DNA from: Escherichia phage TH12
Sequence record: MT446390.1
Direction: 5' to 3' (one strand)
DNA: 64,000 nt
The notes below the pieces were generated by a model, which saw nothing but the letters and a program-made list of their open reading frames with translations, searched no databases and was not told the DNA's origin. The position numbers and the translations under genes were made by a program. Shown here in pieces: positions 4,094-63,437 of the stretch (position 1 is the first letter of the stretch; every line of letters begins with the position of its first letter).

Positions 4094-4123
4094 GTTTACA
4101 ACATGGTGGAGTTGTGATACTAT
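4094..4123 (+). promoter_or_regulatory. T4-type early promoter
   Basis: GTTTAC 4094-4099, TACTAT 4118-4123. Confidence 0.55.
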
Positions 4124-7486: not shown

Positions 7487-7491
7487 TTTTA

Positions 7492-7515
7492 GGGAGACTT
7501 CGGTCTCCCTTTTGT
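7492..7515 (+). terminator. rho-independent terminator, GGGAGAC-UUCG-GUCUCCC hairpin plus U tract
   Basis: Perfect 7 bp GC-rich stem with UUCG tetraloop followed by TTTTGTG. Confidence 0.7.
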
Positions 7516-7989: not shown

Positions 7990-8018
7990 GTTTACTTTGG
8001 TACAGGTTATGTTATTAT
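7990..8018 (+). promoter_or_regulatory. T4-type early promoter
   Basis: GTTTAC 7990-7995, TATTAT 8013-8018; 10 bp dyad TGGTACAGGT/ACCTGTACCA flanks the -10. Confidence 0.55.
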
Positions 8019-28922: not shown

Positions 28923-30206
28923 TTATTCATCTATAATAATTTTAGGCAATTTAACACCGAGTAAAACAGACAAGTCTGAACGTCCTGCCATTTTATCCAT
29001 GTCCCCGCCATCAATTATTCTCGCTTCTTTTTCGTCTTTTGCTACTGTGTAAGGATTTGCTGATAAAGCGTATCTAACTAATAAACCGATAGACGGTTGC
29101 AAGCTTTCCGGGTCAACTACAACTTTAAATGCACCAACATGTTCCGGGTCATCTAAGTCGAGACCTTCTGTATACGGAGCATAGAAAATTGATCCAACAA
29201 TTTCTTTTTCACCGATATTTTCTACTACGCCAACGATCACATAATCTAATGGACTGTTAGTATCGCAGTAAAGAGGTAATCCATTTGCCAAGAATCCATA
29301 AGCATTTTGTGAAAGATACTTATCATCTTCTGGTTTATGTTTTAACCAACCTGAAGCAGCAAGAATAGCAGCTGCACGAGCTGAAGCTACGCAAAACGTT
29401 GCAGTATAAGTTGACTCTTTTTGAATGTGTGATACCATTTCACACACCATTCGATATAACGAACGACCTGCTTCTGGAGCGGAAGCATAGCTCAAGTCAA
29501 TAAATCCAGTGTCAGTAATTCCAGTAACTTTATAACGTTTCGATACAGTAATTAAAGACTGAAGAATATCTTTATTAATTTCATCAGCCATTTCAGTAGC
29601 AAGCAAATCTTCTAAGAAGTTAGGGGCATCAAATCCATTCGCTTCTAAATCTTGCGCTAATTCAACCGTGAGGCCGGTTTTAAGTTTACGAGATTTGACT
29701 GAAGTTTGCCATTTATTAATCTGGAATCTTGCATCAGAAATTTCGCTACCGGAGCTTTCAAATTTGCTTGTCACCGCTGCATCTGAAAATAACCGTACCT
29801 TTAAATGAACGACCGCAATCTGAAGAGCTAATTCTAGATCACTTTCTTGAATATCTGCAAATGGTGTATCTTCTAGCACTTTATAGACGATATTATTATA
29901 TTTGAAAAAATCGCCTTTATTTAGTGTGACTTTTGATTCTTCTGTGAGCTCGGTAATTTTTTCTCGGTCTACATATCCAGCTTCACCTGCATAAGTAGCA
30001 CCAGTTTTAAACGTTAATTCGTTGTCTGGGTTAAGATATTTGATACCATAAAAAGCAGCAACAGGTTGATTAGTTCTTTGTGTTGCTACAATGTCAGAAT
30101 ATATTAATTTAGTCGTAGCGCGAGTCAAAGCAACGAGATTTGGGCGACCAATTGAGTTGCTAGTAGACGTTGTAGATTCACGCAATAATTTTTGGATTTT
30201 ACTCAT
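28923..30206 (-). CDS. 24: head vertex protein
   Basis: 427 aa, near-identical to T4 gp24 as recalled. Confidence 0.95.
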   Translation of the reverse strand: MSKIQKLLRESTTSTSNSIGRPNLVALTRATTKLIYSDIVATQRTNQPVAAFYGIKYLNPDNELTFKTGATYAGEAGYVDREKITELTEESKVTLNKGDFFKYNNIVYKVLEDTPFADIQESDLELALQIAVVHLKVRLFSDAAVTSKFESSGSEISDARFQINKWQTSVKSRKLKTGLTVELAQDLEANGFDAPNFLEDLLATEMADEINKDILQSLITVSKRYKVTGITDTGFIDLSYASAPEAGRSLYRMVCEMVSHIQKESTYTATFCVASARAAAILAASGWLKHKPEDDKYLSQNAYGFLANGLPLYCDTNSPLDYVIVGVVENIGEKEIVGSIFYAPYTEGLDLDDPEHVGAFKVVVDPESLQPSIGLLVRYALSANPYTVAKDEKEARIIDGGDMDKMAGRSDLSVLLGVKLPKIIIDE

Positions 30207-30232: not shown

Positions 30233-30240
30233 TATTTATA
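30233..30240 (-). promoter_or_regulatory. late promoter (TATAAATA on minus strand) for gene 24
   Basis: TATTTATA on plus strand 27 nt upstream of gene 24 start. Confidence 0.55.
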
Positions 30241-30246
30241 AAGATT

Positions 30247-30276
30247 GTTTACAACGTATTTGGTATGTGATACTAT
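30247..30276 (+). promoter_or_regulatory. T4-type early promoter
   Basis: GTTTAC 30247-30252, TACTAT 30271-30276, TATCAA, GAGGAG RBS. Confidence 0.55.
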
Positions 30277-30306
30277 AGACTTATCAACTACAGAGGAGTA
30301 AACAAA

Positions 30307-30576
30307 ATGACTAAAGCACGTTTCTTACGAGATACTTTAAAAGTTCTGGAAGCTGAAGCAGTTAAGTTAGTAGAAAAATATGGTGCAAAAGTTAATGGTA
30401 ATGCCTTCAACAAAGTATGGATGAAAGTTGATTCTGAAGCTCGAGCTAAAGGTTATTGGGCTACTGATAAACTTGCATCATTCAAAAACAAAGACGGTTC
30501 TCCAGCATATGTCCAAGAAGGTATGCCTAATTGGCAAAATATTTTGAAAACTTACATCGAAATTGCACAGAAATAA
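30307..30576 (+). CDS. hypothetical protein (89 aa) on opposite strand between head genes 24 and 23
   Basis: Own early promoter and RBS; occupies the slot where T4 carries segD, as recalled. Confidence 0.6.
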   Translation: MTKARFLRDTLKVLEAEAVKLVEKYGAKVNGNAFNKVWMKVDSEARAKGYWATDKLASFKNKDGSPAYVQEGMPNWQNILKTYIEIAQK

Positions 30577-30604
30577 AACCAAAAATGGGAGACCGAAGTC
30601 TCCC
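30571..30604 (-). terminator. terminator for the gene 23 transcript (GGGAGAC-UUCG-GUCUCCC plus U-rich tract on minus strand)
   Basis: Plus strand AAATAAAACCAAAAAT then GGGAGACCGAAGTCTCCC; same hairpin as at 7492 and 49943. Confidence 0.7.
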
Positions 30605-30628
30605 AAAATAAGATTTAATCAATTAAGA

Positions 30629-32197
30629 TTAGATGCCTTTTACATATACACGGCGGAAGTAAGCGTTCTTACCAAGGCTGTTCAGGATAGACGGCATACC
30701 GGACTGGATGCGAGCACCTGGAGCCTGCAGGGAACTTTCAGCAAACGGGTTAACACCGATACCGTAACGAGTTTTAAAGCCCATTACCGGCTGGAAGTTC
30801 TTAGGATCGGAACCACGCAGTGGGGTAAGTGCAACGTAAGGAGCATAGTAGATACCTGCATCCATTTCGTTAGCGCCTTTGTAACCAACGGTGAAGTAAT
30901 CCTGTTTAGCATACTGGTCGATGTATACGCGGTATTTACCACCAAGTACACCGGCAAATACAGACTTAGTAGTGTCGGTATTAAAACCAGAAGCCAGACC
31001 CTGTGCAGCGTAAGAAATACCAGTATCAACTGAAGCCAGTACGTTAACTACGTTACGGGAAGCGATAATGAAGTTACCTTCACCACGACCGGTTTGACGA
31101 GCAATTTCAACTGCTTCTTTATCAATCTGGAACAACAGAGATTTAAAGCTTTCACCAGCCCAACGAGCACCACGGATATCAATCGGGTCCTGGAAGTCAA
31201 ATACACCAGCTTTAGAACCAGGAGTCAGGGTCATACCAGATTTACCGACCTGTGCTGAGTAGTTAATCCAATCAACAACTTCACGGTTGATTTCTAGCAT
31301 AATTTCTGTAGCCAGAATACCGCTCAGTTCAGCATCAGCATCCATACCGTGTACTGCACGGAGGTCTTGTGCTAATTCGATAGAGTAAGCAGCTTTCAGC
31401 TGGCGAGATTTAGCTTCGATAACTTGTTTATCGATACGGAAGCCCATTTCATTCCATGGGTTATCGGTAGAACCGTTGAAACCTTCCTGGAGTTCAGCGA
31501 TAGAAGTAGCCATACCTTCAGCGATTTCTACCAGGGCACCAGCTTCCATTTGTTTCTTAACTTCTGCATCTAATTTAGCTGCATCAGTTGCACCAGAATC
31601 AAGTGTTACGATAGCAGAAGCTTGCAGATATACAGTACCAGTTTCTTGGAAGAAGTGAGTATAGATATCACCTACAACGGTGGTAGTGTCAGCAGCCAGA
31701 GCTGGGAATTTCTTAGCAGCACCCTGACCAGAGAACATCGCGTCTGGGGCATACATCGGATGGAAAGCTTCTTTAGCGCCAGCAGCGATAGGGTCTTTAC
31801 CATATACTGCACGGAGAGCAAATACCTGACCGGTCGGGCTGTTCATAGGCTGAACACCACAAATATCAAAAGCGATCAGATTAGGAATAGCACGACGAAC
31901 CATACCCATAACTGCCGGCCCAATTTGGGTTACTGCACCAGAGGTTTGACCTGCTGCAATATTCTGAGCATTATAACCGTGGTCACCACCAATTTCAGCT
32001 TCGGTCAAGAAAGAACCAAATGCCTGAGCGATTTTCTCGTCTTTATATTCAGGGGATACTTCGAAATCTTTTTCCTGGTTTTCGAAGATTTTAGCGATAA
32101 TAGCCTGCTTGCTATTAGCGATTTCCGGCAGGCCTTCACCTTCCAGCAGTTCTTTCCATTTGTCTACGAGCTGAGCTTTAGTTTTGATAGTAGTCAT
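30629..32197 (-). CDS. 23: major capsid protein precursor
   Basis: 522 aa, near-identical to T4 gp23 as recalled. Confidence 0.97.
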   Translation of the reverse strand: MTTIKTKAQLVDKWKELLEGEGLPEIANSKQAIIAKIFENQEKDFEVSPEYKDEKIAQAFGSFLTEAEIGGDHGYNAQNIAAGQTSGAVTQIGPAVMGMVRRAIPNLIAFDICGVQPMNSPTGQVFALRAVYGKDPIAAGAKEAFHPMYAPDAMFSGQGAAKKFPALAADTTTVVGDIYTHFFQETGTVYLQASAIVTLDSGATDAAKLDAEVKKQMEAGALVEIAEGMATSIAELQEGFNGSTDNPWNEMGFRIDKQVIEAKSRQLKAAYSIELAQDLRAVHGMDADAELSGILATEIMLEINREVVDWINYSAQVGKSGMTLTPGSKAGVFDFQDPIDIRGARWAGESFKSLLFQIDKEAVEIARQTGRGEGNFIIASRNVVNVLASVDTGISYAAQGLASGFNTDTTKSVFAGVLGGKYRVYIDQYAKQDYFTVGYKGANEMDAGIYYAPYVALTPLRGSDPKNFQPVMGFKTRYGIGVNPFAESSLQAPGARIQSGMPSILNSLGKNAYFRRVYVKGI

Positions 32198-49927: not shown

Positions 49928-49935
49928 TATTTATA
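49928..49935 (-). promoter_or_regulatory. late promoter for gene 9
   Basis: TATTTATA on plus strand 26 nt upstream of gene 9 start. Confidence 0.55.
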
Positions 49936-49942
49936 CACGAAA

Positions 49943-49960
49943 GGGAGACCGAAGTCTCCC
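49943..49960 (-). terminator. GGGAGAC-UUCG-GUCUCCC hairpin after gene 8
   Basis: Exact copy of the hairpin at 30587-30604, between gene 8 stop and the gene 9 late promoter. Confidence 0.6.
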
Positions 49961-49964
49961 TAAA

Positions 49965-62672: not shown

Positions 62673-62702
62673 GTTTACATAAGGATGATGGCGTGTTACT
62701 AT
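62673..62702 (+). promoter_or_regulatory. T4-type early promoter
   Basis: GTTTAC 62673-62678, TACTAT 62697-62702; dyad AGGATGAT/ATCATCCT flanks the -10. Confidence 0.6.
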
Positions 62703-63027: not shown

Positions 63028-63057
63028 GTTTACATGCTAATAGGACTATGTTATAGT
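63028..63057 (+). promoter_or_regulatory. T4-type early promoter
   Basis: GTTTAC 63028-63033, TATAGT 63052-63057; dyad TAGGACTA/TAGTCCTA flanks the -10. Confidence 0.55.
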
Positions 63058-63407: not shown

Positions 63408-63437
63408 GTTTACTTTTAGATAGGGTGGTGATACTAT
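63408..63437 (+). promoter_or_regulatory. T4-type early promoter
   Basis: GTTTAC 63408-63413, TACTAT 63432-63437; dyad TAGGGT/ACCCTA flanks the -10. Confidence 0.55.

Follow-up and report, generated by a model that had tools for sequence, protein, structure and literature searches.

A small ORFan gene with an early-type promoter between head genes 24 and 23 of Escherichia phage TH12 and related T4-like phages

Results and discussion

Genomic context and expression signals of the 89-aa ORF

We analyzed a stretch of 64,000 nucleotides from Escherichia phage TH12 (hereafter, the window) which, judging from the slot comparison described below, comes from a Mosigvirus, an RB69-like T-even phage. 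Between genes 24 and 23, both on the minus strand, lies a plus-strand ORF encoding an 89-aa protein (Table 1). The identities of the two flanking genes follow the annotation of phage PhAPEC2, where they are a gp24 homologue and a gp23 homologue, and where the slot region is 99.5% identical to that of the window. The 422-bp intergenic region has counterparts with 99-100% identity in over 60 phages of Escherichia and Shigella that belong to the genus Mosigvirus. The ORF is located within the conserved head module that spans genes 20 to 24, not in a hyperplastic region. An earlier note on this DNA proposed that the ORF is a gene equipped with its own early-type promoter and ribosome-binding site. 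All the sequence elements of the locus that the note named are present where it placed them, and the ORF with these signals is a genuine gene.

Table 1. Genes and regulatory elements of the gene 24-gene 23 slot of phage TH12 (window coordinates)
Feature	Position	Strand	Description
Gene 24, head vertex protein	28923..30206	-	427-aa ORF; left flank of the slot
Gene 24 late promoter	30233..30240	-	Exact T4 late consensus; TATTTATA as plus-strand letters, TATAAATA on the minus strand
T4-type early (sigma-70) promoter	30247..30276	+	-35 box GTTTAC(A), TG-extended -10 box TACTAT; promoter scan
Shine-Dalgarno sequence GAGGAG	30293-30298	+	8 nt upstream of the ATG; 5' breakpoint of the LF82-1 swap
89-aa ORF	30307-30576	+	ATG start; stop codon 30574-30576; ORF list
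Gene 23 intrinsic terminator	30572..30605	-	8-bp stem, UUCG loop, U-rich tail; terminator scan
Gene 23, major capsid protein	30629..32197	-	522-aa ORF; right flank of the slot

The early promoter combines all the features of the T4 early class, namely, a -35 box (GTTTAC, 30247-30252), an appropriate spacer, a -10 box of the form TAnnnT (TACTAT, 30271-30276) and an AT-rich upstream region. Counted from GTTTAC, the spacer measures 18 nt; when the promoter is read as TTTACA-17-TACTAT, it measures 17 nt. A TG dinucleotide one base before the -10 box makes this an extended -10 promoter. Matches to the pattern GTTTAC-N16-18-TANNNT number 14 in the window, compared to 3.1 +/- 1.9 in shuffled sequences, and 12 of the 14 lie on the plus strand; the promoter at 30247 and several other sites that match the pattern have a longer string in common, GTGATACTAT...ATCAAC..GAGGA..ATG. 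The start region of the ORF is unstructured (dG -1.4 kcal/mol).

The late promoter of gene 24, which is located 27 nt upstream of the gene start (30206), is invariant in an alignment of seven phages, including the phage with an empty slot. The early promoter and this late promoter are arranged back-to-back. Their proximity had been pointed out previously, with a distance of 7 nt; the adjacency holds, but the actual gap between the motifs is 6 nt (30241-30246). We estimate that the footprint of a sigma-70 polymerase bound at the early promoter would extend over the late TATAAATA box. Because early and late promoters are used at different times, such overlap does not necessarily entail a conflict.

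At the other end of the slot, the hairpin GGGAGAC-CGAA-GTCTCCC (30587-30604, or 30586-30605 with an 8-bp stem) starts 10 nt after the stop codon of the ORF, the distance that the earlier note had estimated. The hairpin is an intrinsic terminator on the gene 23 strand only, where its loop reads UUCG and the tail UUUUUGGUUU follows; this U-rich tail overlaps the stop codon of the 89-aa ORF. On the ORF strand, the hairpin lacks a U-tract and is followed by AAAAUAAG. The predicted folding energies are -16.4 kcal/mol for the minus strand and -13.5 kcal/mol for the plus strand. Terminator scanning and folding identified no good plus-strand terminator beyond the hairpin, within gene 23.

The same 18-nt hairpin, GGGAGAC-TTCG-GTCTCCC, is found in identical form at no fewer than three sites of the window (7491-7508 on the plus strand, 49944-49961 and 30587-30604), the loop reading UUCG on the transcribed strand. 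One of these copies adjoins a minus-strand late promoter (49928-49961), in the same combination of terminator and late promoter that makes up the empty slot of Yersinia phage fPS-65. In phage VR20, the hairpin between the ORF and gene 23 (L002 2788-2814) scores as a terminator on both strands; the U-tract is confined to the gene 23 strand in the window, T4 and phage WG01.

Sequence conservation and predicted structure of the protein

The ORF encodes a basic protein of 10.1 kDa with a pI of 9.6. It matches the phrog_6003 profile with an E value of 2.1e-45, residues 1-89 being aligned with positions 1-90 of the 90 positions of the profile. The identical protein of PhAPEC2 is annotated as "hypothetical protein similar to RB69ORF188c", and other annotations of the PHROG 6003 family read JS98 gp173-like or VR7 gp190-like hypothetical protein. 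With a full-length match, the same slot and the same strand, the 89-aa protein is a member of the RB69ORF188c/PHROG 6003 family from which it shows no difference. The gene is already known: its annotation goes back to the RB69 genome, and PHROG lists it as family 6003.

Homologues of the same length and with 30-38% sequence identity occupy the same slot, in the same orientation, in Gaprivervirus VR20, Dhakavirus WG01 and the Tequatroviruses G28 and ZJUN4; a closer homologue (61% identity), also in the same slot and orientation, is encoded in a 173-kb uncultured T4-like contig. The earlier note had made its case dependent on conservation of the ORF in related phages, and the gene is indeed conserved across four Tevenvirinae genera. 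Among the Dhaka-type alleles, the dN/dS values are 0.07-0.10; in one example comparison, 18.5 synonymous changes were counted against 6.5 non-synonymous ones, despite the approximately fourfold excess of non-synonymous sites. The pI is close to 9.6 in all family members. On the evidence of the profile match, the syntenic homologues and these substitution patterns, the 89-aa ORF is a real protein-coding gene under purifying selection.

The family is tiny: HMMER, run exhaustively against 1.8 billion representatives, retrieved only 7 proteins. Outside the T4-like phages, a homologue is present in the record of Acinetobacter phage ABPH49, which is classified under Vequintavirinae. There, the gene belongs to a co-directional array of small hypothetical genes that includes no head genes, and no homing endonuclease is annotated within 4 kb; this context argues against a function tied to gene 23 or gene 24. 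A profile search against all six-frame ORFs of the window detected no paralogue of the 89-aa ORF. Truncated or disrupted copies of the ORF, in the form of 51-aa and 41-aa fragments, also occur (phage mogra, MN850579, 65653-65918; proteins P0007, P0008 and P0010); the mogra copy is annotated as two CDS in different reading frames.

The structure predicted with AlphaFold2 consists of two helices (residues 3-25 and 31-48), a β-hairpin (56-70) and a third helix (76-88). The best model has a pLDDT of 86.6 and the other four range from 58 to 72, that is, only one of the five is confident; superposition with the independently predicted BFVD structure of a family member gives a TM-score of 0.77. The invariant residues map to the loop between helices 1 and 2 (G-N-x-x-N within VNGNAFNK) and to Q70.

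The assertion of the earlier note that the protein has no recognizable motif is borne out by the searches of Pfam, NCBIfam and PADLOC and by the structural comparison with Foldseek that the note had recommended, none of which gave a lead to a function. In Pfam, the only match of the 89-aa protein is DUF4859, with an E value of 0.003 that is below the cut-off of this family, and other members of the family have no match; NCBIfam and PADLOC yielded nothing meaningful, and the best match in a profile search of PDB sequences had an E value of 1.4. When the AlphaFold2 model was compared with the PDB using Foldseek, the best E value was 0.39, and the search of BFVD retrieved the family member only. 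Thus, none of the sequence and fold searches produced a match that would hint at a function or a binding target. A few of the weak, non-significant Foldseek matches in the PDB look like winged-helix domains by our reading.

Several specific identities were considered and rejected. The protein is not a SegD-like GIY-YIG endonuclease: it has no match to the GIY-YIG domain in Pfam, is only 89 aa long and is mostly helical. The segment WATDKLASFKNKDGSPAYV (residues 51-69; window 30457-30513) is similar to the β-hairpin that opens the cytochrome b5-like repeats of P0013, a 655-aa metagenomic protein; this resemblance covers 19 residues and one allele type only. A cytochrome b5-like identity was discarded given that PF00173 does not match the ORF and that the Dhaka-type alleles lack the motif, so the similarity is probably due to chance. 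Finally, the name "NADPH-dependent curcumin reductase CurA" that is attached in JGI to the 90-aa homologue P0006 (L005 4001-4273) is spurious and derives from a sub-threshold NCBIfam match (E 0.047).

In the literature, we found nothing on RB69ORF188c beyond genome annotation, no Mosigvirus transcriptome and no report of a transcript, a protein or a phenotype for this gene in any Mosigvirus. In a toxicity screen of the Mosigvirus AV110, the candidates were picked by homology to T4 early proteins; the 89-aa gene would not have been included because it has no match in T4.

Variation of the slot among T4-like phages

Comparison of the slot across T4-like genomes, as suggested in the earlier note, revealed four states: empty, ORF only, ORF followed in tandem by a segD-like endonuclease gene, and segD only. 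The empty state was read in the Tequatrovirus fPS-65 from Yersinia, in which the late promoter of gene 24 directly abuts the gene 23 terminator and there is no early promoter. The sampled Tequatrovirus spans have the length of the empty slot, and a query with the T4 segD slot was covered to at least 80% in only 53 of 921 records; from these data, the empty slot looks like the common state in Tequatroviruses. The sequence of genes 23 and 24 beside the slot in Tequatroviruses is 85-88% identical to that of the window. The window represents the ORF-only state. A tandem of the ORF and a segD-like GIY-YIG endonuclease gene on the same strand is present in LF82-1, F2 and AV116, and segD alone occupies the slot in T4 and T6. 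Most of the ORF carriers lack any endonuclease. The window-type allele was found in 119 of the 135 records with at least 95% identity across the slot, and two partial-coverage records that were sampled carry a Dhaka-type ORF together with segD; by this count, the gene is near-universal in Mosigvirus.

Every occupied slot examined, that of T4 included, contains the early promoter, and the single empty slot that was read lacks it; a matching promoter is located at the same place in WG01, G28, VR20, the 173-kb contig and upstream of T4 segD. The number of gp24 copies next to the slot also varies: one in the window and in T4, and two tandem paralogues in VR20 (L002 1-2394), WG01 (L003 1-2399) and the 173-kb contig (L005 1337-3901).

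Phage LF82-1, which has the backbone of a Mosigvirus, offers a close view of an exchange. Its sequence is 98.5% identical to that of the window up to position 30298, the end of the Shine-Dalgarno sequence, and again from position 30573, at the stop codon; between these breakpoints, LF82-1 carries a Dhaka-type ORF, a type that is only about 33% identical to the window-type alleles, and a homing endonuclease that is 57% identical to T4 SegD. The position of the breakpoints at the Shine-Dalgarno sequence and the stop codon implies that the conserved regulatory ends serve as crossover points. Endonuclease-driven co-conversion would be an obvious way to bring about this swap. The endonuclease gene of LF82-1 (L007 3001-3930) starts 3 nt past the stop codon of the ORF homologue and has no Shine-Dalgarno sequence of its own, which suggests that it is translationally coupled to the ORF. 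The segD-like endonuclease would depend on the promoter of the ORF and probably also on its translation.

Comparison with T4 segD and with other mobile gene cassettes

As stated in the earlier note, T4 encodes the homing endonuclease SegD in the same slot and in the same orientation. The two loci share the opposite-strand arrangement, homologous late and early promoters placed back-to-back, and the same UUCG terminator hairpin downstream. They differ in the cargo, which in T4 is a 672-bp gene for a 223-aa GIY-YIG nuclease, whereas the window encodes an 89-aa helical protein. Therefore, the claim that the slot holds an unrelated protein instead of segD stands as far as the unrelated cargo is concerned; the implication that the two genes are simple alternatives does not, since some phages have the ORF and segD in tandem.

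Directly upstream of T4 segD (positions 5282-5254 of L004, NC_000866, minus strand), we identified the sequence TTTACA-17-TATTAT, with a TG and 10 of 12 matches. It is the best promoter-like site in the spacer between segD and gene 24, and its place is homologous to that of the early promoter in the window. A 2010 review stated that segD has no identifiable promoter (PMC2988022), and a 2022 multi-omics study of T4 classed segD RNA as early and detected the SegD protein (PMC9697503, supplements). The T4 data are consistent with a working promoter and, given the homology, with early expression of the 89-aa ORF as well. The homologous promoter in T4 probably works, and this conserved element is a possible answer to the remark that segD has no promoter. 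From the class of the promoter and by analogy with T4 segD, we infer that the 89-aa ORF is transcribed early.

In T4-type phages, cassettes that consist of a promoter-early-stem-loop (PeSL) element and an ORFan drive modular shuffling (PMC2839356, PMC4122927). The element described here resembles these cassettes in that a strong early promoter of the sigma-70 type, preceded by AT-rich sequence, ends in the Shine-Dalgarno sequence and start codon of an ORFan, and in that the ORFan is inserted, deleted or replaced among close relatives, with breakpoints in conserved regulatory sequence. In contrast to PeSL cassettes, it resides in the conserved head-gene module rather than in a hyperplastic region, its promoter lacks a stem-loop, and on the 3' side it is bounded by the terminator of a convergent late gene. 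Full PeSL identity was rejected for the promoter at 30247 because the stem-loop around the -10 box is missing: folding of the DNA at 30241-30300 gives -1.4 kcal/mol with a z score of +1.0.

Elsewhere in the window, five early promoters (4094-4123, 7990-8018, 62673-62702, 63028-63057 and 63408-63437) contain a PeSL-like inverted repeat that brackets the -10 box. Folding of four of them gave energies of -6 to -12.4 kcal/mol, and the fifth repeat, at 63028, was recognized by eye only.

The morons of lambdoid phages are autonomous units of promoter, gene and terminator that are inserted between late genes and are typically expressed from the prophage of a temperate phage. Like a moron, the 89-aa ORF is an extra, independently transcribed gene between two structural genes that is present or absent among close relatives; unlike a moron, it is found in a virulent phage, where an early lytic promoter drives it.

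Functional interpretation

Taken together, these comparisons lead us to favor, with moderate confidence, the interpretation that the locus is a self-contained early ORFan cassette whose small protein acts early in the infected cell on a macromolecule of the host or the phage. The cassette would comprise the sigma-70 early promoter, the Shine-Dalgarno sequence and the 89-aa ORF, inserted between the late promoter of gene 24 and the terminator of gene 23. Host RNA polymerase would transcribe it during the first minutes of infection, when gene 23 and gene 24 mRNAs do not yet exist. The selected product would be the small basic protein and not the RNA, and the protein would most likely bind a host or phage macromolecule early, as an accessory factor of host interaction. 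The slot itself would be a recombination hot spot in which the promoter with the Shine-Dalgarno sequence, on one side, and the terminator, on the other, act as crossover points, such that divergent alleles of the ORF, as well as a segD-like endonuclease riding on the expression signals of the ORF, could be exchanged between genera.

In this exchange, the ORF might be more of a vehicle than a gene with a role of its own: it could be a landing site and expression platform for a homing endonuclease, or a passenger of co-conversion, with little independent function. The tandem arrangement, with the endonuclease dependent on the promoter and probably on the translation of the ORF, points in this direction, as does the presence of T4 segD behind the same promoter, and co-conversion around a homing endonuclease would leave precisely the kind of allele swap seen in LF82-1. 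Such a passenger role would explain the mosaic, but it accounts neither for the many carriers that have the ORF without an endonuclease nor for the low dN/dS, which argues for a selected function of the protein; the ABPH49 homologue, too, has no annotated homing endonuclease in its vicinity. We therefore consider it doubtful that the ORF is merely an endonuclease companion.

The convergent arrangement with gene 23 admits a function at the RNA level, where the early transcript would be antisense to gene 23, as the earlier note had suggested, or late read-through from gene 23 would silence the ORF, with the protein being incidental. The ORF-strand hairpin has no U-tract, no good plus-strand terminator was detected within gene 23, and the U-tail of the gene 23 terminator overlaps the ORF stop codon, all of which would be compatible with such interference; furthermore, T4 makes early "anti-late" RNA. 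However, the purifying selection acting on the amino acid sequence weakens the antisense idea, and both length and pI of the protein are maintained at 30% identity. Read-through into gene 23 is not conserved because VR20 has a bidirectional terminator after its copy of the ORF. T4 retains the promoter with a wholly different 672-bp cargo, the ABPH49 homologue is convergent with nothing, and early and late transcription are separated in time. Judging from these sequence features, interference by antisense RNA is unlikely to be what selection maintains, and an RNA-level role in general, including the silencing of the ORF, appears quite improbable.

A different link to the neighboring genes would be a contribution to head morphogenesis, with the protein aiding the folding or assembly of gp23 or gp24 in the way that the early-expressed co-chaperonin gp31 serves gp23. 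The strict synteny with genes 23 and 24 in four genera is consistent with such a helper, and the retention of the gene in one fixed slot by essentially all Mosigviruses could alternatively reflect a role tied to its neighbors. Nevertheless, the gene is dispensable for making heads because it is disrupted in mogra and lacking in most Tequatroviruses, even though the flanking genes 23 and 24 of the latter are 85-88% identical to those of the window. Moreover, alleles that are only 33% identical have been swapped on a backbone that is 98.5% identical, the ABPH49 homologue is found among small hypothetical genes rather than head genes, and the promoter is early, not late. A head-morphogenesis helper is thus very improbable.

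That the ORF is spurious, a product of chance in intergenic sequence, as its shortness, AT-rich composition and lack of a database domain might suggest, has a negligible probability in view of the match to a PHROG (E 2e-45), the conservation of length and position at 30-38% identity, the excess of synonymous over non-synonymous changes, and the strong Shine-Dalgarno sequence and promoter.

Returning to the early-acting protein as the preferred interpretation, the role in host takeover or anti-defence proposed in the earlier note is an expectation for this class of genes as a whole. A more specific scenario, which we regard as a tentative possibility, is that the RB69ORF188c proteins act early, in anti-defence or host takeover, as factors of a new type and with a novel fold, that the two deeply divergent allele types, interchangeable on one backbone, target different host variants, and that the segD-like endonuclease spreads or amplifies the locus among co-infecting T-even phages. 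A parallel would be the SegB-driven amplification of anti-defence loci that has been reported for T6 (PMC13096335).

Conclusions

The element described here is another early ORFan cassette, that is, an ordinary accessory gene of a phage, and not a new kind of system. The four-state slot, the swap from the Shine-Dalgarno sequence to the stop codon, the piggy-backing endonuclease and the promoter upstream of segD are useful observations that are unlikely to surprise a T4 specialist. The slot is a clean natural example of a regulatory cassette that sets the breakpoints of recombination inside a conserved structural module, and also of a homing endonuclease that borrows the promoter, and probably the translation, of its neighbor. 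If the protein is host-directed or is involved in anti-defence, the known set of such factors would gain a new fold, and such a function would explain why the gene is retained in nearly all Mosigviruses and missing from most of the T4-like Tequatroviruses.
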